A stretch of 64,000 bases of DNA from Candidatus Falkowbacteria bacterium (GTDB taxonomy: Bacteria; Patescibacteriota; Patescibacteriia; Patescibacteriales; UBA12075), in contig DOSJ01000010.1 in NCBI GenBank assembly GCA_003514005.1, positions 39,425 to 103,424 of the forward strand, in the 5' to 3' direction. The translations under genes were made by a program, and so were the position numbers. The notes beneath the pieces are model-generated. The model was given only the letters and a program-made list of their open reading frames with translations, was not told where the DNA came from and made no database searches. Below, one piece after another: positions 23,407 through 64,000 of the stretch (the first letter of the stretch is position 1; every line of letters starts with the position of its first letter).

Positions 23407-23964
23407 TTAATCTTTTTTATTTACCAGTATCATTATAAACCTTCCCCCTTGTTTTGTCAAGTCTTGTTCTCGCATAATATTCAATCCTTCATTTTTCTGC
23501 AATTCCGCCACAAATTCATTGATTATTTCGACGGCTTTTTCCGGATGCTGTTTTTCCCGCCCTTTTAAAACCAAATCGATTTTTACCTTATGTCCCTTGC
23601 TAAAAAACTTTAGCGCCTGATCCGCTCTTAGGGCCAAATCATTTTTACTAATGCGCACCGATAATCGGACGCCTTTTGTATCGATTTTTTTCTGGGCGAT
23701 TTTCTGTTTATGCGCCTTTTTTTCTCTTTCGTATTTTAATTGGCCATAATCAACAATCTTTACAACCGGCGGCTGTCCGGTCGGGTTAACCTCTACCAAA
23801 TCCAGCCCGATTTCTTCCGCCCGTCGCAACGCCTCGGCTATTGTTACAATACCAACGTTTTCACCAACTTCATCAATTAAATACACTTCCGGTACCCGAA
23901 TCTGCTGGTTTGTTCTAAATCTTTTTTCTATTTTAGGTTGCGCCTTGCGCCATGTTCTCCGCAT
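23407..23964 (-). CDS. infC: Translation initiation factor IF-3
   Basis: 185 aa, IF-3 N- and C-domain pattern (IRVPEVYLIDEVGE...), in the infC-rpmI-rplT operon order. Confidence 0.9.
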   Translation of the reverse strand: MRRTWRKAQPKIEKRFRTNQQIRVPEVYLIDEVGENVGIVTIAEALRRAEEIGLDLVEVNPTGQPPVVKIVDYGQLKYEREKKAHKQKIAQKKIDTKGVRLSVRISKNDLALRADQALKFFSKGHKVKIDLVLKGREKQHPEKAVEIINEFVAELQKNEGLNIMREQDLTKQGGRFIMILVNKKD

Positions 23965-24114: not shown

Positions 24115-24306
24115 AAATTGAGACTTGAGAAAAGTTTTTTTTCTGTCATTCCCGCGCAGGCGGGAATCTTGGTTAAAAAATCACTTAACATTTTATAATA
24201 ACGTTGGCTAAAAAATCTTTAGCTCAAAAATCAGTTTTTCTTTTTTTTAAACCGAGATTCCCGCCTGCGCGGGAATGACAAGAGTTTTTTTCTCAAGTCT
24301 CAAATT
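24115..24306. mobile_element. MITE-like element, copy 4 (137-bp core 24144-24280 plus outer inverted repeat)
   Basis: The core has the TGTCATTCCCGCGCAGGCGGGAATC ends, and its internal sequence is nearly identical to copy 7 (52930-53065). The outer arms are AAATTGAGACTTGAGAAAA / TTTTCTCAAGTCTCAAATT. Confidence 0.75.
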
Positions 24307-24418
24307 GGTTATTACCGAAGTGAGGACTGTTTGAGCCGCTTCCAAAATAAATAATAAATAAAAAAGGCGAGTTCCCAGCCTACCGGCAGGCACGGCGCAA
24401 CGAGGTAATAACCAATTT
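24303..24418. repeat. Inverted repeat (15-bp arms AAATTGGTTATTACC) around an 86-nt relatively GC-rich centre
   Basis: AAATTGGTTATTACC ... GGTAATAACCAATTT. The centre contains GGCGAGTTCCCAGCCTACCGGCAGGCACGGCGCAACG. Confidence 0.5.
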
Positions 24419-24797
24419 AAACCTTTACGAAACGGACAAAAAAAGAATACATGGCTTTTTTCAAAATAAAAAGGAGCCCAACGGGGCCCCCTTCTTTTTT
24501 ATATAAAAAAATGAATTTATGGGGTCTATATGTTGAGCTCCATCCCTAAGAATTATTTGATACATTTATATGTAATATAAATTTTCTCAGGGCAAATGGA
24601 ACTACTTCCTAACTTTAGTAGTTAATATTCACCGATTGGTAGTAATCCCAAATAATTTTTTTTATATTATATTCAGAACTACTGTTTTTTTTGTTTTTGT
24701 TTTTGCTTTTTTGTAAAGGCCTGTCAGGACTGGCCGATAACCAGTGAATAATATGTTGTTAAATAACATCTACAATTAATATATCATATTTTTAGAC

Positions 24798-24822
24798 TTA
24801 AGTCAACGATATCCTAGACTTA
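24798..24822 (+). promoter_or_regulatory. 25-nt motif copy C0 (TTAAGTCAA-CGA-TATC-CTAGAC-TTA)
   Basis: Aligns with five other copies of the consensus WTAAGTCYA-N3-AAAC-STRGAC-TTA. This is the most degenerate copy. Confidence 0.45.
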
Positions 24823-24874
24823 AATTATTATCTAATATAAGACACGAAAATCTAATTAATAATAGTTATCAACA

Positions 24875-24899
24875 ATAAGTCCAGGTAAACGTGGACTTA
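24875..24899 (+). promoter_or_regulatory. 25-nt motif copy C1 (ATAAGTCCA-GGT-AAAC-GTGGAC-TTA)
   Basis: Perfect 8-nt inverted repeat TAAGTCCA/TGGACTTA with an 8-nt spacer. Confidence 0.6.
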
Positions 24900-24920
24900 A
24901 AGTATTATTTTCAATAATTT

Positions 24921-24950
24921 TTATCCACATTTCCACAGTTTTTATCCACA
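24921..24950 (+). promoter_or_regulatory. Two perfect DnaA boxes (TTATCCACA) plus one degenerate box in direct orientation
   Basis: TTATCCACA at 24921-24929 and 24942-24950, with ATTTCCACA at 24929-24937. Confidence 0.6.
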
Positions 24951-24966
24951 TCATAGTCATATGAAC

Positions 24967-24991
24967 TTAAGTCTAATAAAACGTAGACAAA
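24967..24991 (+). promoter_or_regulatory. 25-nt motif copy C2 (TTAAGTCTA-ATA-AAAC-GTAGAC-AAA)
   Basis: Aligns position for position with the other copies. Confidence 0.55.
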
Positions 24992-25018
24992 ACCCCGCCC
25001 TTCGCGAAGGGCGGGGTT
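24991..25018. terminator. GC-rich hairpin downstream of tRNA-Cys
   Basis: AACCCCGCCCTTCG / CGAAGGGCGGGGTT. On the minus strand it is followed by TTTTGTC. Confidence 0.6.
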
Positions 25019-25025
25019 ATATTTG

Positions 25026-25096
25026 AGGTCTGGAACGGATTTGAACCGATGATGGCAGTTTTGCAAACTGCTGCCTTACCACTTGGCTACCAGACC
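25026..25096 (-). tRNA. tRNA-Cys (anticodon GCA)
   Basis: The minus strand reads GGTCTGGTAGCCAAGTGGTAAGGCAGCAGTTTGCAAAACTGCCATCATCGGTTCAAATCCGTTCCAGACCT. The anticodon loop is TTGCAAA. Confidence 0.85.
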
Positions 25097-25775: not shown

Positions 25776-26231
25776 TCAACCTGGCGGCAATGAACCCCCC
25801 GTACCTCCTCCCGCATCTCCCTTACTATCTCCAAACGGCAAAGCCTTGAATACAAATGCGGTTATAGCATAGGCTGATACGATAATAACAAGTCCAATAA
25901 TCGCTTTTTTGATTGTTTCTTTAGCTGTCGTAACCTTTTGCTCTTCTCCTCCAGCCGTCATCCAAATAAAACCGGCATAAATCATTAATATTATAAAAAT
26001 AATAGCGAGTAATCCCAAAAACGCTTTAATTACTATTGAAATAATTTCACCAAGCTCGGCACCGTCGCTGTCGCCAATATTAAATCCTGAGCTTTTAGCA
26101 AATTTCCCCATCAAACTTTCTCCACCGACAACTTCATTCGGATCATTCAACGGTCCTGCCAGAGAAGTGCCTACAAAAAAACTAAAAGAGATAATAATAA
26201 TAGACAAACTTATCAAAATATATTTTCGCAT
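25776..26231 (-). CDS. VirB2/TrbC-like pilin-family small membrane protein, paralogue 8 (Gly-rich C-terminal tail)
   Basis: 151 aa. Signal peptide, then two TM helices around the conserved loop YAGFIWMTAGGEEQKVTTAKETIKKAIIGLVI. The tail is GDSKGDAGGGTGGSLPPG. Confidence 0.7.
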   Translation of the reverse strand: MRKYILISLSIIIISFSFFVGTSLAGPLNDPNEVVGGESLMGKFAKSSGFNIGDSDGAELGEIISIVIKAFLGLLAIIFIILMIYAGFIWMTAGGEEQKVTTAKETIKKAIIGLVIIVSAYAITAFVFKALPFGDSKGDAGGGTGGSLPPG

Positions 26232-26241
26232 CTTTTTAAAA

Positions 26242-26616
26242 TTAATTTAATAACTTAAATAATACAAAATTACTAATCGCATACGAGCCAACGGTTATAA
26301 TTAATCCGATAATCGCGCGTCGAATCGTGCTTAATGCCTTATCTACCTTTGACTGATCGCCCGCCGCAATCATATAATTGTACCCGGCGTAAAGCATCAA
26401 AACTACAAATATTATTCCCAGTATCGAAAAAAATATGCTTACGATTTTACCTGCGTTTGTAACTAAATCGTTTTCGCTTGTAACGCCGGAATAACCGCCC
26501 TTAACCCCAACATCACTTAGCTTGTCTAAAGGTGACTGCGCAAATACAAAATATGGTAAAATTAAAACTACCACAAGACACATTAACACAAAAATATTTT
26601 TGATTTTAGTTTTCAT
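26242..26616 (-). CDS. VirB2/TrbC-like pilin-family small membrane protein, paralogue 7
   Basis: 124 aa, same architecture (YAGYNYMIAAGDQSKVDKALSTIRRAIIGLII). Confidence 0.7.
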   Translation of the reverse strand: MKTKIKNIFVLMCLVVVLILPYFVFAQSPLDKLSDVGVKGGYSGVTSENDLVTNAGKIVSIFFSILGIIFVVLMLYAGYNYMIAAGDQSKVDKALSTIRRAIIGLIITVGSYAISNFVLFKLLN

Positions 26617-26632
26617 TTTTTTATTTTTAGTT

Positions 26633-27079
26633 TTATAAATTTAAATCCGGTTCGCTTTCTTCCCAGCTAGAGTCATTTTTAAACACATCTTTTGTAACAT
26701 TTTGAATGACAAAAAAAGAAATCGCATAAGCCAAAACTATAACAACTACACCAATAACAGCGGCGGTTATCAAGTTTTTTGCTCTTGTCACTTCCTGTTC
26801 ATTATCACGCGCCATCATCCAGATATATCCGCCATAAATCATTAAGATTAAGAATATAACTCCCAAAATTGATAATACAACACTGATTATTTTTGCAATC
26901 ATACTTTCTGCGCTTACACCTGTATCGTAACCACCGGAAACTGCAACTGTATTTGCATTACCAAACGCATCTTTAAGATCTTGTGCATGTGCCACAAAAA
27001 CAAAGCTTAGGCTGCACAATACAATAAATATGTCAACAAATATTTTTTTTTGCTTCAAAAACATATATTTATTACGCAA
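26633..27079 (-). CDS. VirB2/TrbC-like pilin-family small membrane protein, paralogue 6
   Basis: 148 aa (YGGYIWMMARDNEQEVTRAKNLITAAVIGVVV) with an acidic C-terminal tail. Confidence 0.7.
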   Translation of the reverse strand: MRNKYMFLKQKKIFVDIFIVLCSLSFVFVAHAQDLKDAFGNANTVAVSGGYDTGVSAESMIAKIISVVLSILGVIFLILMIYGGYIWMMARDNEQEVTRAKNLITAAVIGVVVIVLAYAISFFVIQNVTKDVFKNDSSWEESEPDLNL

Positions 27080-27080
27080 A

Positions 27081-27467
27081 TCATTTTAATAAATTCTCAC
27101 CTACAAAATTCGTTATCGCATACGCGGCTATTACTATTACAAGTCCGATTAGGGCATTGCGAATAATATCTTTAGCCCTGGTTACCTCTGACTCAACCCC
27201 TCGCGAGTTCATCCAGATAAAACCACCCCAGATAGTAAAGATTAAAAACAAAACGCCGATTATCGATAAAAGAATCTGGATTAAAAGTCCGACCGAGCCC
27301 AAGGCGCCTAGTTTTGATATTTTTGAGCCTAAGTGTCCGGTTCCTTCCGCAGTTTTTTCAAGGCTATTATTAAAAATCGATTTTGCATCTTCGCCCTCTG
27401 CTAACACAAATGAAATATTTATAAATAACAAAAAACAAATTATTCCAATTGTAAATATTCTCTTCAT
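27081..27467 (-). CDS. VirB2/TrbC-like pilin-family small membrane protein, paralogue 5
   Basis: The internal ATG at 27467 (MKRIFTIGIICFLL) gives a signal peptide and removes the overlap with paralogue 4. Loop: WGGFIWMNSRGVESEVTRAKDIIRNALIGLVI. Confidence 0.7.
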   Translation of the reverse strand: MKRIFTIGIICFLLFINISFVLAEGEDAKSIFNNSLEKTAEGTGHLGSKISKLGALGSVGLLIQILLSIIGVLFLIFTIWGGFIWMNSRGVESEVTRAKDIIRNALIGLVIVIAAYAITNFVGENLLK

Positions 27468-27474
27468 AAAAATT

Positions 27475-27876
27475 TTATAACAATTGTTGTCCAATAAATT
27501 GTGTGATCGCATAGGCCGCCAAAACAACCACAAGCCCGATAATCGCGGCCTGAATCAAATCCTTGGCTTTTGTAACCTCGCCTTCATTTCCGCGAGCAAT
27601 CATCCATATAAATCCGCCATATATCATTAGTCCCAAAAACAAAATACCAATCAAAGAAAGACCAACACCGATTACTTTTCCAATCGCGCTGGGTAAGCTT
27701 GCCATGCCACCATCCGGTATTTTCCCATAACCTTTTTTAGCGGCTTCATCAAGCCCAGTAATTGCGCTGGAATCAACCGCCATAGCCATAGGTAAAACAA
27801 AAACAAAAAACAGTAAAATAATAAATAATATTCTTACGATGTTTTTTTTATTCTTTATAATTCCCGTCATGTTCAT
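27475..27876 (-). CDS. VirB2/TrbC-like pilin-family small membrane protein, paralogue 4
   Basis: 133 aa (YGGFIWMIARGNEGEVTKAKDLIQAAIIGLVV). Confidence 0.7.
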   Translation of the reverse strand: MNMTGIIKNKKNIVRILFIILLFFVFVLPMAMAVDSSAITGLDEAAKKGYGKIPDGGMASLPSAIGKVIGVGLSLIGILFLGLMIYGGFIWMIARGNEGEVTKAKDLIQAAIIGLVVVLAAYAITQFIGQQLL

Positions 27877-27937
27877 TAATCGAAAACAGATAATAGCAAA
27901 ATAAGCAAGCTATTATCTGTTAAAATACAAAATGATT

Positions 27938-28339
27938 TTATAAATCGCCATTAATTGCGTCGGCAGACATATTTATTACAAAATTCACGATTGCAAAGGC
28001 GGCAATAATAACTACAAGTCCAATAACTCCGGCGATAATAATACTTTTCGCTTTTCCAACACGATCATCATTCCCGGCAGCCGTCATCCAAACAAAACCT
28101 CCGTACAAAATTATAACTACGGCAATAATTCCTAAAAAGGTAATCAAATATTTAATAATCGTTACTGCCATATCCCGAACATCTTCATCTGCCGCAGCCG
28201 GCAAACCGACATTTTCTGCATACTTTATTCCTAATGACTCATCTAAAGATTGTGCTTGGCTTAAGTTTGCTTGAAAAAATAAAGAAAAAACACACAAAGA
28301 TACAATTGTAGCGACTAAATACTTTTTAAAAGTAAGCAT
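27938..28339 (-). CDS. VirB2/TrbC-like pilin-family small membrane protein, paralogue 3
   Basis: 133 aa (YGGFVWMTAAGNDDRVGKAKSIIIAGVIGLVV). Same subtype as paralogues 1 and 2. Confidence 0.7.
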   Translation of the reverse strand: MLTFKKYLVATIVSLCVFSLFFQANLSQAQSLDESLGIKYAENVGLPAAADEDVRDMAVTIIKYLITFLGIIAVVIILYGGFVWMTAAGNDDRVGKAKSIIIAGVIGLVVIIAAFAIVNFVINMSADAINGDL

Positions 28340-28376
28340 ATTTTTAAATTTTTCTAAATAAGTAGCTGTAATTATT

Positions 28377-28754
28377 TTAAATGTTTCCGCTTATCGCGTC
28401 ATTAGTTATATTAACGATAAATGTAATTATTGCAAATGCCGACAATATAACTACTAGTCCGATTGCGCCGGCAATTATGATTTTTTTTGCGTCTTCAACA
28501 CTATCCTGATTTCCGGCAGCAGTCATCCATTTAAAACCTCCGTATAATATAATCACAACGGCAATAATTCCCAAAAATGTCATAAGATATTTAACGATTT
28601 CAACCATCATCTGTTTTGGGTCTGTTTCTGAAGCTACTTGCAAATCTAAATTTTCAGCATAATCCAGACCAATATCTTGCGCGCTCACCGGAATAATATT
28701 AATTAAATTTAAAAAAATTATTAAAATCGCTAATACGGTTTTAAAGAATGTCAT
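28377..28754 (-). CDS. VirB2/TrbC-like pilin-family small membrane protein, paralogue 2
   Basis: 125 aa, very close to paralogue 1 (SAQDIGLDYAENLDLQ...ITNDAISGNI). Confidence 0.7.
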   Translation of the reverse strand: MTFFKTVLAILIIFLNLINIIPVSAQDIGLDYAENLDLQVASETDPKQMMVEIVKYLMTFLGIIAVVIILYGGFKWMTAAGNQDSVEDAKKIIIAGAIGLVVILSAFAIITFIVNITNDAISGNI

Positions 28755-28870
28755 AAAATTGTATTGTTAATTATTATTTAGTCCACCCTTATGGCAATAT
28801 TTTTTTATTGCCATAAGGGTGGATCCCTAGAATTCTAGAGGGACCCACGATATTTTGCGAATTACAGGTT

Positions 28871-29260
28871 TTAGATGTTTCCGCTCAAAGCATCATTTGT
28901 AATGCCAACAACGAAAGTAACGATTGCGAATGCGCACAAAATAATTATCAAGCCGATAACACCGGCGATAATTAATTTTTTTGCCTCAGCAACCTTGTCT
29001 TCGTTTCCAGCCGCAGTCATCCATTTGAAACCACCCAACAATATTACTACAACAGCGATAATACCCAAAAAAGTCATCAAATACTTGACAATGTCTACAG
29101 CCATTTGCTTAGGATCGGATTCGTTAGCTGCCTGTAAATCAAGGTTATTAGCATAATCCAAACCTATATCTTGCGCTGATACCGGTAATATAGCCATTGT
29201 TGAAAACAAAAAAACCATAACTATCGCCGCAAAAATATTTCGAAATAAATTTTTATTCAT
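28871..29260 (-). CDS. VirB2/TrbC-like pilin-family small membrane protein, paralogue 1 (likely major subunit)
   Basis: 129 aa. It is the only array member inspected that has a strong Shine-Dalgarno sequence (GGGGAGGTGA 6 nt before the ATG), and it is followed by a 16-bp perfect hairpin. Confidence 0.75.
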   Translation of the reverse strand: MNKNLFRNIFAAIVMVFLFSTMAILPVSAQDIGLDYANNLDLQAANESDPKQMAVDIVKYLMTFLGIIAVVVILLGGFKWMTAAGNEDKVAEAKKLIIAGVIGLIIILCAFAIVTFVVGITNDALSGNI

Positions 29261-33975: not shown

Positions 33976-34040
33976 TTATTCGACTTATCAACAATTGACG
34001 AAAAGCAAAATATTTGCTACAATACTATTATGTGACTTAG

Positions 34041-34065
34041 ATAAGTCCACAAAAACCTAGACTAA
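34041..34065 (+). promoter_or_regulatory. 25-nt motif copy A1 (ATAAGTCCA-CAA-AAAC-CTAGAC-TAA)
   Basis: Its first 17 nt match copy B2 at 16 of 17 positions. It ends 19 nt upstream of the 34084 start codon. Confidence 0.55.
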
Positions 34066-34083: not shown

Positions 34084-34425
34084 ATGACAATAAATACTTA
34101 CGTTTCCCCGATTAATGAGACAGCTACAAAATCACAAATCGGTTGGAAATATTACAATAGCATAAAAAAGAAAGCTTTGGAAAGTGAGTTCAGCTTGTCT
34201 GGACTTATACTAAGTATTTCCATTGCTTTTTTTATTGTGCTGATTACTGCTTACAGTTTGTCATTATTGCATACATCTTATAAAAATACCCAGATTCAAA
34301 ATACTATAAACAAAAACATTTATAGCCTGGAAAAATTCCATACAGAATCGGGTGTCTATTATATACAAGAAAATTTAATTGATCTTTCAAAAACCGAAGA
34401 TTCGGCAAATAATTTATTGGCCTAA
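34084..34425 (+). CDS. Hypothetical single-pass membrane protein
   Basis: 113 aa with a central TM helix. No recognisable family. Confidence 0.5.
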   Translation: MTINTYVSPINETATKSQIGWKYYNSIKKKALESEFSLSGLILSISIAFFIVLITAYSLSLLHTSYKNTQIQNTINKNIYSLEKFHTESGVYYIQENLIDLSKTEDSANNLLA

Positions 34426-53958: not shown

Positions 53959-54411
53959 TTATTGAAACCATGAGGAATTAAAAATATTTTTTGTCGCTTC
54001 AATGCCCATGGCCTTGGCTGTAAAATTGATTATCGTATAGCTGGCAAAAACCACCAGTAAACCGATAACCGCTCCAATTATTGTATTTTTTCCTCGTTCA
54101 ACCAATGATTTGTTCCCGGCAGAAACCAGAAACATAACTCCGCCAGCCACAAATGCCAAAAGCGCCAAAGCGCCGACAATACCTAAAATAATTTTCGATA
54201 TCCTAACCAAAAGTTCTAAAACATCATTAACTTGATAATTACCACAATATTTTTTACACGCATCATCACTGCATGTTGAACAGTCTCCAGTGAAAGTATT
54301 CGCATCCAAAACGGTAGTCGGCGTCGGATCTGCACTTACAAAAACTGGTAAAAAACAAAACAAAAAAAACAACACGATAATTATACTATTAAATATTTTT
54401 TTTATTCTCAT
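53959..54411 (-). CDS. VirB2/TrbC-like pilin-family small membrane protein, paralogue 9 (Cys-rich N-terminal region)
   Basis: 150 aa. Same two-helix core (AGGVMFLVSAGNKSLVERGKNTIIGAVIGLLV), preceded by GDCSTCSDDACKKYCGNY. Confidence 0.65.
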   Translation of the reverse strand: MRIKKIFNSIIIVLFFLFCFLPVFVSADPTPTTVLDANTFTGDCSTCSDDACKKYCGNYQVNDVLELLVRISKIILGIVGALALLAFVAGGVMFLVSAGNKSLVERGKNTIIGAVIGLLVVFASYTIINFTAKAMGIEATKNIFNSSWFQ

Positions 54412-54459: not shown

Positions 54460-55911
54460 TCATTTAACCGTCTGCTGAATCTTTTGCGCGGCCAGATTTA
54501 CTGCTTCAGCTATCGGTTTTTGTCCGGAAACCACGCTGTCAATCATGTCTTTTATAATCATTTCCATAGCATTGGCATCGTGTCCGCGATACCAGCTTTT
54601 TGCCGTTAACAGCTGTTTGGCAAACATGCCCAGCTCCGGATCTTCACTTTGTTCCGGGATTAACGAACGCAAAGCTGTTGTCTTTTTTGTTTTGTCTAAA
54701 TATTTTTTTGCTTGCTTTTCTTCAGCCGCAAAACGGATAAAATCCCAGGCCGTATTTAGCTTTTGTTTGGCATAGTCATTGCCTTTTTGTAAATTCTCAG
54801 CATTAGTTAATATCTTACTGGACACGGTTTCTACCCAATAGTTGGCAAAATTAATGCTATATGCGCTATCTTCAATTTGCGGCATTCCCGCAAGCGCAAA
54901 GTTTAGCTTTGGCGCACGCGCCTTGATTTCCGGCAACATATAAGAATATCCGAACATAATCGCCAATTTATTATTTATAAACATGTCCAGCGATTTTTCC
55001 AACGTATTGTTCCAGCTGTAAACTTCTTTGGAAGGATTGGTAAAGTCCGTATAAAAACGCAAAGCATCCTGCCCGGGAAAATAATTCTTTTGCGTTGATG
55101 AGTTTGGCGCCTTATAAAACGTTACTTGATTCTTGTCCATCATTTCCGCCCCGCTCTGCATCATGAGTAATGCCAAGATATCGGAATACCTTTCAATATT
55201 ATCACTGCCGCCCAAGGCAACGCCGGACTGGATGATTTCACCTTTATTATTTTGCTTGGTAAGCTTTTTTACGTTCTGCTGAAATTCCCGATTCCAAAAA
55301 GCCGGAGCCGCAACTATGCCAGCATTGTTAAACAAATCTTTATTGTAATACATCGTCAACGTATCAACCGACAGAGGCAAAGCAAAAACCTGTTCTTTCG
55401 GTTGTTTTGTACTTTCATCAATAGTTGAGATAACTACGTCATCATAAACGGCATCAATAAAATCCGTTTTAACCTTGTTTGAGTTAACAACCGGTGAAGG
55501 GCGCAGTTCCCAGGTAACTTCTTTTTTTATACTCCCGCTGACAATCGGATAGGCCATGGTGATTTTTTCCGGCATCGCCGTGATCAATCCCTTTTCTTGA
55601 TACTTCCGCGTCCAGGAATTATGTATCGAAAAAATATCCGGGCCGCGGTCAGTTGCAAACGCTTCAATCAAAGCTTGCTCATATTCATCATATCTTAGCT
55701 TGCGATAGTTAATCTTTACAAAAGGATGCGCGGCAGTATAAGCGGCGATTATATCGGCAAAATCATCCGGACCATCCCAAACGCGCCAATAATTCAAGGT
55801 TACCGGCTGTATATATCGTTTTGTGGTATTATCCACACGATTCAATCCGCAACCAGTGATTGAAAAAAGAATTATGAATAAAACACAGAATGAAATAATC
55901 TTTTTTGCCAT
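54460..55911 (-). CDS. Sugar-type (family 1) extracellular solute-binding lipoprotein
   Basis: 483 aa. Lipobox ITGC and an SBP_bac_1-like body. No transporter partners are adjacent. Confidence 0.65.
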   Translation of the reverse strand: MAKKIISFCVLFIILFSITGCGLNRVDNTTKRYIQPVTLNYWRVWDGPDDFADIIAAYTAAHPFVKINYRKLRYDEYEQALIEAFATDRGPDIFSIHNSWTRKYQEKGLITAMPEKITMAYPIVSGSIKKEVTWELRPSPVVNSNKVKTDFIDAVYDDVVISTIDESTKQPKEQVFALPLSVDTLTMYYNKDLFNNAGIVAAPAFWNREFQQNVKKLTKQNNKGEIIQSGVALGGSDNIERYSDILALLMMQSGAEMMDKNQVTFYKAPNSSTQKNYFPGQDALRFYTDFTNPSKEVYSWNNTLEKSLDMFINNKLAIMFGYSYMLPEIKARAPKLNFALAGMPQIEDSAYSINFANYWVETVSSKILTNAENLQKGNDYAKQKLNTAWDFIRFAAEEKQAKKYLDKTKKTTALRSLIPEQSEDPELGMFAKQLLTAKSWYRGHDANAMEMIIKDMIDSVVSGQKPIAEAVNLAAQKIQQTVK

Positions 55912-62712: not shown

Positions 62713-62838
62713 ATTTTTTAAATATTATTTTATAAACAAAGTATCACCATCTAAGCACAGCACATCTCAACATTATCAACACTTATCCCCGATTTATACA
62801 CACAAACTTTAAATTTAATATTAGCCATTTGGACACAT

Positions 62839-62863
62839 TCTGTCCACGTTTCTGTGGACTTAT
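62839..62863 (-). promoter_or_regulatory. 25-nt motif copy B2 (ATAAGTCCA-CAG-AAAC-GTGGAC-AGA)
   Basis: Read on the minus strand; about 130 nt upstream of the trxB start. Confidence 0.6.
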
Positions 62864-62884
62864 CCCCTAGTGCACTATTTTATT

Positions 62885-62909
62885 TAAGTCCACGTTTTTT
62901 TAGACTTAT
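62885..62909 (-). promoter_or_regulatory. 25-nt motif copy B1 (ATAAGTCTA-AAA-AAAC-GTGGAC-TTA)
   Basis: Read on the minus strand; 46 nt upstream of copy B2. Confidence 0.6.
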
Positions 62910-63082
62910 CTTTAGTATCGTTAAATAAAATTAATTTTCTCAGTTTAAAAAATTACTTCCACATAGAACTTTTTTTCTTACTATATCTTACGTCCTTGTT
63001 ATTTATTATAAAGGATTTGAAATAAAAAGACAATCAGTATGTTTTATAAAATTATTTTACTCACTTTACACACACCATATAG

Positions 63083-63176
63083 CAGGGATTTATAAGATTT
63101 ATATGATTTTTTTCTTTTGGGAATAGGTAAAATAAAAATCTAAAAAAGAACCATATAAATCTTATAAATCCCTGCA
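63083..63176. repeat. Inverted repeat with about 26-bp arms
   Basis: GCAGGGATTTATAAGATTTATATGATT ... AACCATATAAATCTTATAAATCCCTGC. Confidence 0.65.
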
Positions 63177-63311
63177 AAAACAAACAGTAATATTCAGTAG
63201 ACGGGAAATTTATTATTTGTTGTGTAGTTAGAGTTAACAAAATGAGAAATATTATTATATTATAAAAATGATTCGAGTCTTTCTTGTGATCTAAAAATCT
63301 CCAAAAGGGGA

Positions 63312-63333
63312 TTCTTCATTTGTATGGACTATA
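63312..63333 (-). pseudogene. Duplicated 3' fragment of tRNA-Ala (T-loop to acceptor end)
   Basis: TATGGACTATAGGGGACTCGAA versus TGTGGACCATAAGGGACTCGAA at the 3' end of the intact gene (19 of 22 identical). It has no matching 5' half. Confidence 0.5.
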
Positions 63334-63513
63334 GGGGACTCGAATGGCCAAGACCAATTTCCATCAATCCAATTAATTTTGCTTGTCGTCATTATTTTTT
63401 CTTTCTACATGACTTTACCACAAGTCCAGTATAATCAGTATGGCTTGAATCATCCTTATAATCAACTTATAAAATTACCCCGTCTTTCGCGAAAGGCGGG
63501 GTAATTTTATATG

Positions 63514-63587
63514 TGGACCATAAGGGACTCGAACCCTTGACCTCTTGCATGCCATGCAAGCACTCTAGCCAACTGAGCTAATGGCCC
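63514..63587 (-). tRNA. tRNA-Ala (anticodon GGC)
   Basis: The minus strand reads GGGCCATTAGCTCAGTTGGCTAGAGTGCTTGCATGGCATGCAAGAGGTCAAGGGTTCGAGTCCCTTATGGTCCA. The G3:U70 identity pair is present. Confidence 0.85.
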
Positions 63588-63980
63588 ATTTATTAAACAA
63601 TTATATAGCTTTAAAAATTATTTTCTGTTTTTTTTACTTCCTTGTCTTTATAGTTTATTCGCTGATTTACGCGGATGTAAACGCGGATTGACGCAGAAAA
63701 TGTATTTAATAACTAATTTTTAATTATTAGTTCTTTGTGGAACTGTTTTGAATATTTTTTTGTGGGTGGGGCGATAGTTAATAATCTCTAATGACGTGCT
63801 TTAAATAATTACCTAAATAGGGGACAGACTATATTTAATTATTCTCATCAGTAATAATCTGACTTAATTCAGCTAATATTAGGCTTAAATATAAATTTTA
63901 TATTTATATTCTACAAATACATTCAATATTAGCTAAAAATACATCTTATATTTAATATAAGCCACTATTTTCAATAACTG

Positions 63981-64000
63981 TGCCCTCGAGAGGAATTGAA
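63981..64000 (-). tRNA. 3' end of a tRNA gene truncated by the window edge
   Basis: The minus strand reads TTCAATTCCTCTCGAGGGCA: T-loop, 3' T-stem, acceptor 3' strand and discriminator. The anticodon is not visible. Confidence 0.4.

Follow-up and report, generated by a model that had tools for sequence, protein, structure and literature searches.

Paired DnaA boxes upstream of a candidate tRNA-Cys-linked structured RNA gene in a Falkowbacteria genome

DnaA of Escherichia coli also regulates transcription, for which it uses pairs of boxes at close spacing, and its regulon, mapped by chromatin immunoprecipitation sequencing (ChIP-seq), takes in nucleotide-synthesis and RNA-metabolism genes (PMC11317965). 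The datA locus adjoins the glyV-X-Y tRNA operon, and read-through transcription from these tRNA genes controls the datA complex (PMC10950094). In Caulobacter, the base-pairing small RNA CcnA (~180 nt) is encoded at Cori under the control of CtrA and is cell-cycle controlled (PMC8959179). Gene regulation and cell-cycle control are almost unexplored in the candidate phyla radiation (CPR)/Patescibacteria, a group for which few lineage-specific RNAs are known. Here we analyse a pair of DnaA boxes at 24.9 kb of a 64-kb stretch of a Candidatus Falkowbacteria genome (contig DOSJ01000010.1; the whole of this stretch is referred to as the window), located in the 1.06 kb between infC (23407-23964, minus strand) and a tRNA-Cys gene. 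A first-pass annotation had taken this interval as gene-free and had offered a replication origin or a DnaA-regulated or DnaA-titrating locus as its interpretation: the latter part fits what we found, namely boxes that are conserved in four genomes ahead of a promoter that is conserved as well, whilst the origin is not supported. With a probability of roughly 0.55, we read the box pair as part of a ~220-bp control region upstream of a tRNA-Cys-linked gene for a structured non-coding RNA (ncRNA), and not as an origin. The features on which this reading is built are as follows, in the order in which they are met along the minus strand:

25025-25096, minus strand: tRNA-Cys (GCA), co-oriented with and directly upstream of the module described below
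24993-25018, minus strand: tRNA-Cys terminator hairpin, which sets the tRNA apart from the control region
24968-24991, no strand assigned: palindrome A3, TTTGTCTACGTTTTATTAGACTTA on the minus strand, kept in the related sequences L019, L137/L298 and L306
24942-24950, plus strand: distal box, a perfect DnaA box TTATCCACA, at about -171 to -179 from the predicted transcription start site
24929-24937, plus strand: 7/9 box ATTTCCACA between both perfect boxes
24921-24929, plus strand: proximal box, a perfect DnaA box TTATCCACA, at about -150 to -158 from the predicted transcription start site
24876-24899, no strand assigned: palindrome A2, a perfect TAAGTC-N12-GACTTA, TAAGTCCACGTTTACCTGGACTTA on the minus strand, with outer half-sites invariant in three genomes
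24866-24874, plus strand: 8/9 box TTATCAACA, abutting palindrome A2 and absent from the earlier list
24799-24822, no strand assigned: palindrome A1, whose TTGACTTA half-site contains the -35 hexamer
24778-24806, minus strand: sigma-70-type promoter TTGACT, 17 bp, TGaTATATT (extended -10), firing leftwards, with 10/12 matches plus the TG
24465-24771, minus strand: candidate structured ncRNA gene of ~307 nt, marked by its fold z-score and an architecture shared by four genomes
24465-24501, minus strand: G+C hairpin with U-run ending the candidate RNA, terminator-like in both directions and kept as GAAGGGGCCCGTTTGGGCCCCTTTTTTT in L019, L298 and L306

When compared with the systems named above, the locus is most readily placed beside DnaA-regulated promoters: oriented, closely spaced consensus 9-mers lie upstream of a promoter and are conserved at orthologous promoters, and DnaA control of the putative targets (the RNA gene and trxB, which feeds ribonucleotide reduction) would fit, by analogy, the E. 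coli regulon themes of RNA metabolism and nucleotide synthesis. It departs from them in that the pairs preferred in E. coli are 2-3 bp apart, whereas the boxes here are 21 bp apart from start to start and lie 150-180 bp upstream, interleaved with 3-4 palindromes of 24 bp for a putative second factor, and in that the putative target is a large structured ncRNA. In common with datA, the DnaA-reactivating sequences (DARS) and the Bacillus subtilis clusters, it has DnaA boxes clustered in non-coding DNA outside oriC, and like datA it is found immediately downstream of a tRNA (PMC10950094, PMC4585315), but it exhibits far fewer boxes and stands in close connection with a conserved promoter. Bacterial oriC regions (PMC4285127) share with it the consensus DnaA boxes in a long intergenic region and the proximity of AT-rich DNA, although here the AT-rich DNA falls within the predicted RNA and neither a skew switch nor dnaA/dnaN linkage is seen. 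Like Caulobacter CcnA (PMC8959179), the locus would place binding sites of a master regulator of replication or the cell cycle (putative here) at the promoter of an ncRNA gene; unlike CcnA, the RNA is 310-375 nt in length, unrelated in sequence and not located at the origin, and the sites are of the DnaA type. Iteron-type plasmid and phage origins also combine one or two DnaA boxes with several repeats of ~20-24 bp, but the repeats here are palindromes and not direct iterons, the same palindrome is present at three promoters within 64 kb, and the neighbours are infC and tRNA-Cys rather than a rep gene. What is new about the locus is the RNA and its operator-plus-box architecture rather than the occurrence of DnaA boxes outside an origin.

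A module of ~550 bp is collinear in the window and in three other Falkowbacteria-like genomes. Read along the minus strand of the window, it leads from tRNA-Cys and its terminator through one or more palindromes, the box pair, a further palindrome, a diverged spacer of ~55-65 bp and a palindrome that provides, through its TTGACTTA half-site, the -35 of TTGACT-17-TGnTATATT, into a predicted transcribed region of 310-375 nt that is closed by the G+C hairpin with its U-run. The linkage to tRNA-Cys is seen in three of the four genomes (window, L298 and L306). One relative is Falkowbacteria RIFOXYD12_FULL_34_57 (L019), in which a ~600-bp stretch is collinear with 24440-25000 and which was the sole match when the module was searched with nhmmer over 68 infC loci. 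Among the matches listed from a promoter-pattern scan of metagenomes, most were due to chance and the real ones were L082 (identical to L019) and L137; by walking from the neighbouring dksA, L137 was extended into the longer contig L298, and L306 and a partial contig, L302, were added. RNA-pattern scans of viral contigs gave no real match. Compared with the window, L019 carries the module in the opposite orientation with respect to infC; elsewhere the module stands beside dksA, and the order tRNA-Cys, module, dksA-lspA-tsaE is stable in several genomes. In L302 (1-2114), the RNA gene, within which the contig ends, is separated from dksA by an rve-family transposase and small open reading frames (ORFs). 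The closest named relatives belong to Candidatus Falkowbacteria/Parcubacteria. The contig of the window is also present as DNEU01000002.1 (88.3 kb), from a Rifle aquifer CPR bacterium, and as JGI 3300001242; as no difference exists in this region among three assemblies of the organism made independently, population variation is uninformative.

The two perfect boxes at 24921 and 24942, in the same orientation and 21 bp apart, are present as first described, and so is the 7-of-9 box at 24929 (ATTTCCACA); including the 8/9 box, two perfect, one 8/9 and one 7/9 box fall within 85 bp, which is at the low end for oriC. Perfect copies of TTATCCACA number three in the window compared to 0.63 expected from dinucleotide shuffles, and a pair at 21 bp is very unlikely, in agreement with the initial estimate that chance would hardly produce it. 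With one mismatch allowed, 24 boxes are found window-wide against 16.9 expected: because this count is unremarkable, the signal lies in the local pair and not in a general enrichment. The third perfect copy (55829-55837) stands alone within an SBP_bac_1 (solute-binding-protein) gene (54460-55911) and is probably a chance occurrence.

Conservation in related genomes had been proposed beforehand as a check, and the box pair is present in the modules of all four genomes, with the 21-bp start-to-start spacing and the orientation kept in L019, L137/L298 and L306. The distal box corresponds to AGTGGATAA in L019, TGGGGATAA in L137 and GTGGGGATAA in L306 (7/9 columns invariant in the alignment with L019 and L137), and the proximal box to TGTGTATAA in L019 and to AGTGGATAA in both L137 and L306. 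The 7/9 box ATTTCCACA is not kept in L019, L137 or L306, and in L306 a copy of TGTGTATAA sits between palindromes A2 and A1. Invariant columns make up 78% of each box, as opposed to 8% of the 12 nt between the boxes and 29-41% of the neighbouring spacers; for the promoter block (A1 plus promoter) the figure is 67%. Conservation is patchy in the manner expected for binding sites, with boxes, palindromes and promoter standing out as conserved islands amid diverged spacer.

Three copies of a 25-nt motif had been reported next to the boxes: the three copies do exist, but they are in fact 24-nt palindromes of the form TAAGTC-N12-GACTTA. Perfect sites of this form are A1 and A2, one site upstream of trxB (B2, see below) and four each in L137/L298 and L306, with ~0.01 expected per 81 kb at this base composition (a rough hand estimate); the half-site TAAGTCYA occurs 12 times in the window against 2.3 expected, and all TAAGTC-N12-GACTTA sites fall in promoter regions. 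The half-sites had also been likened to GTCCACA-type DnaA boxes, a resemblance that turned out to be superficial because the palindrome core is TAAGTC/GACTTA and not TCCAC, and because the palindrome position matching the essential DnaA-box position 6 varies (C/T/A). Inverted DnaA boxes were dropped as the main reading of the palindromes: given that TAAGTC/GACTTA is invariant and the 'CAC' varies, the palindromes are better taken as sites of a separate, putative dimeric factor. The boxes, on the other hand, keep CAC while the palindrome half-sites keep TAAGTC with a variable CAC, which points to two different readers. By inspection, neither the sequence nor the copy pattern fits parS, dif or res sites.

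The promoter block ATCGTTGACTTAA...TATGRTATATT hardly differs between the four genomes, and its pattern is found once in the window. The minus strand downstream of it exhibits a fold z-score of -6.05 against shuffles, compared to -2.39 for the antisense strand, with values of -7.10 for L137 and -8.24 for L019 (three of the four RNAs were scored). Four independent minimum free energy (MFE) folds share one plan: a long-range helix of 12-15 bp (P1) encloses a small hairpin (Pa), a linker and a hairpin of 14-18 bp (Pb), and is followed by a long hairpin (Pd) and the terminator. The A-rich unpaired linker AAAAACAAAAACAAAAAAAA between Pa and Pb is almost invariant, with a single C-to-U change in L298. 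The helices were compared from each sequence's own fold, as the MAFFT alignment misplaced helix P1; changes on both sides with pairing kept are found at 9/12 aligned pairs in P1, 4/5 in Pa and 10/14 in Pb, and the G-U pairs in these three helices fit the minus strand as sense. The RNA has no match in Rfam 15 at the gathering threshold, and nothing credible was obtained at E<=10 or E<=1. With a conserved promoter and intrinsic terminator, a conserved fold and strand-specific stability, and with its place outside the described families, the locus is, as judged from sequence and predicted folding, a good candidate for a new structured ncRNA that was previously undescribed. Two other candidates were tried and rejected, namely a divergent tmRNA (ARAGORN and Rfam find none here, and the RNA is without tRNA-like ends) and a gene for a small protein (the 3' part of the RNA is overlapped by short ORFs whose frame is disrupted between genomes by a 1-nt indel, as judged by eye from the alignment). 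The description of the interval as gene-free holds as far as it concerns ORFs, of which none from infC to tRNA-Cys reaches 60 aa (the longest has 51 aa), but not beyond this: the 1.06 kb are not empty, as they accommodate the candidate RNA gene with its control region, along with a repeat element and the terminator of tRNA-Cys.

DnaA-responsive control of the RNA promoter, together with a palindrome-binding factor, is the most likely role of the boxes. DnaA would sit on both phased boxes, near -150 and -171, and a putative dimeric factor would bind the 3-4 TAAGTC-N12-GACTTA operators, one of which would occlude the -35; the two proteins might then jointly set the output of the strong RNA promoter to replication or DnaA status. 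Several points weigh against this reading. The boxes were scored against the general DnaA consensus, which may not be the specificity of the DnaA of this lineage, and those of the relatives are 8/9 matches and not perfect. Positions of -150 and -171 are unusual distances for simple activation or repression. As for the RNA, the helix registers across genomes are anchored on each genome's own MFE fold, and the covariation statistics are thin because there are only four module sequences, two of them fairly close.

Boxes and palindromes of the same types are combined at two further sites in the window:

62773-62908, no strand assigned: second cluster upstream of trxB, with TTATCAACA (62773), TTATCCCCG (62784) and TTATACACA (62794), the outer pair being 21 bp apart
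62839-62862 and 62885-62908, no strand assigned: palindromes B1 and B2 of the second cluster, 125-195 bp upstream of trxB
33985-34065, plus strand: third site, with TTATCAACA abutting the -35 of a TTGACG-17-TACAAT promoter

With respect to the gene that follows, the trxB boxes are oriented like those at the RNA locus. At the third site, palindrome C1 (34042-34065; TAAGTCCACAAAAACCTAGACTAA) lies just past the -10 and ahead of an ORF (34084-34425, 113 aa) that has no Pfam match. That the box-plus-palindrome code recurs upstream of trxB, 38 kb from the RNA locus, and ahead of another gene as well points to regulation, probably of a small regulon, rather than to a unique replication element. A related arrangement was observed in the phage contig L262 (4238-5458; IMGVR_UViG_3300013099_001106), where a 1.2-kb gap before the terminase and portal genes contains two palindrome copies, two perfect DnaA boxes and TTATGTAACGAG iterons, with one palindrome abutting a perfect TTATCCACA and a -35/-10 ahead of the terminase operon; L262 could come from a phage that infects these bacteria and shares their regulatory code. 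As a tentative extension, possible but in our view rather doubtful, the new RNA family with its operator array and phased boxes and the code shared by the promoters of trxB, another gene and the phage terminase could represent a DnaA-plus-factor regulon that couples replication status to RNA and to redox/nucleotide supply in an ultra-small CPR cell and that is tapped by phages. Should the locus be confirmed, it would provide a structured RNA family that is new and clearly delimited by promoter and terminator, the first candidate members of a DnaA regulon in the CPR, and a well-defined 24-bp operator of a putative global regulator that is seemingly shared by a phage.

An explanation for the boxes that does without DnaA would be that the TTATCCAC-like elements are read by another protein, perhaps the palindrome binder or its partner, and match the E. 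coli consensus by coincidence. We consider this unlikely, even if the boxes always accompany palindromes, with which they are in some cases fused (B1 contains GACTTATCC, the phage contig TTATCCACAACTTAAGTCC), the core in the relatives, G(T/G)G(G/T)ATAA, is looser than a strict DnaA box, and the DnaA of CPR bacteria may have a specificity of its own: most phyla use TTATCCACA as their DnaA box (PMC4285127), most of the variants fit TTATNCACA with 0-1 mismatch, and the retention of CAC in the boxes is unlike the behaviour of the palindrome half-sites.

The main rival is a site that titrates DnaA or modulates its activity in the manner of datA, DARS or the B. subtilis clusters, with the promoter and RNA being incidental or modulating occupancy through transcription. 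This is attractive since datA likewise follows directly on tRNA genes, whose read-through controls it (PMC10950094), and the boxes here, two perfect and phased and accompanied by weaker ones in non-coding DNA, are found directly downstream of a co-oriented tRNA gene in three of the four genomes and at a distance (-150, -171) from the promoter. There are, however, only 2-4 boxes, those of the relatives are imperfect and hence poor for titration, and no IHF-type site was recognised, though no search for IHF sites was made. Moreover, the similar box trio right at the trxB promoter and the box at the -35 (33985) look regulatory, and we regard titration as the role of the 24.9-kb boxes as quite improbable.

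The module could also stem from a mobile element or a phage, either as a remnant or as cargo; it might, for instance, be a regulatory region of phage type or the origin of a satellite that integrated beside a tRNA gene. The tRNA gene next to it, neighbouring genes that vary among genomes, the rve transposase beside it in L302, the adjacent REP/MITE-like repeats and the occurrence of a palindrome with a perfect box upstream of the terminase operon in an iteron-bearing phage contig are in line with such a history. It is nevertheless very unlikely, with no integrase, rep gene or att-like direct repeats flanking the module in the window, a stable order of tRNA-Cys, module and dksA-lspA-tsaE in several genomes and no copy of the RNA in the viral contigs scanned.

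That the 24.9-kb region is a non-canonically placed oriC, at which the DnaA boxes would nucleate unwinding of the AT-rich 24650-24720, is scarcely credible despite the box cluster in a long non-coding region, the very AT-rich stretch ~200 bp away and the location of the module near a point of gene divergence in L019 and L298. Skew was computed on an 81-kb reconstruction of the genome (the window plus flanks of ~17 kb). GC skew is negative across the window and cumulative skew, which had been proposed as a check for an origin, falls monotonically through 24.9 kb with no switch; orientation-corrected skew per gene is -0.119 to the left of the site (23 genes) and -0.116 to its right (34 genes, to 62.7 kb), and as these values match, both flanks belong to one replichore. 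The residual skew at the L019 and L298 modules likewise does not show the change of sign of an origin, having the wrong sign pattern. Neither dnaA nor dnaN is present within the 81 kb, which bears out the earlier remark that none is nearby: no Bac_DnaA was found by Pfam scans of 30 of the larger ORFs of the window or in the gene tables of the flanks, and E. coli DnaA gave no match when the entire window was searched by tblastn. Linkage of oriC to dnaA and dnaN is usual, not obligatory. A run of DnaA-trios (3'-GAT-5') beside the boxes was not seen by eye, no formal trio scan having been made. The sole strongly AT-rich stretch, 24650-24720, is the almost invariant linker of the candidate RNA, bracketed by the conserved promoter and terminator. 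The position is not conserved either: of the 68 related loci, 67 lack the box cluster upstream of infC, as do the two closest relatives, the module is inverted in L019, and its neighbours differ among genomes. A similar cluster of boxes and palindromes lies 38 kb away, upstream of trxB.

In the related genomes, infC is usually preceded by tmRNA (transfer-messenger RNA), tRNA-Leu and tRNA-Gly, and by protein genes in the two closest relatives. Across the infC loci L004-L071, many contigs end 100-900 bp upstream of infC and gene order varies, and the region upstream of infC looks like a rearrangement or assembly-break hotspot.

Within the 81 kb plotted, the minimum of cumulative skew coincides with a divergence of gene strands at ~63-64 kb, with seven genes only beyond this point. 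The trxB-side region (62.7-64.4 kb) would therefore make a better, though unproven, candidate for oriC than 24.9 kb, and the comparison of both regions advises caution against calling origins from DnaA boxes alone. Here, 62713-64000 (to ~64429 on contig k141_575689, L213) forms a 1.7-kb ORF-free region between trxB and the next gene, in which tRNA-Ala and another tRNA, truncated where the window ends, are accompanied by three imperfect DnaA-type boxes, two palindromes and a hairpin (63075-63175) whose arms are 24 bp long. The terminators that follow tRNA-Cys (24993-25018) and tRNA-Ala (63478-63505) have nearly the same sequence, CCCCGCCCTTCGCGAAGGGCGGGG and CCCCGTCTTTCGCGAAAGGCGGGG.

Outside the module, the interval upstream of infC contains one further element:

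24115-24306, no strand assigned: inverted repeat resembling repetitive extragenic palindromes (REP) or miniature inverted-repeat transposable elements (MITE), with 37-nt arms that are 95% complementary

The core of this repeat, GTCATTCCCGCGCAGGCGGGAATC, is present in several copies in the relatives L020 and L021, and a second, weaker hairpin follows it at 24288-24432. On the other side of the locus, the assembly L003 breaks just past tRNA-Cys. Beside this tRNA, 25776-29260 encodes eight tandem paralogues of small proteins resembling type IV secretion system (T4SS) pilins (PF18895), and one further PF18895 paralogue is located 25 kb away at 53959-54411.

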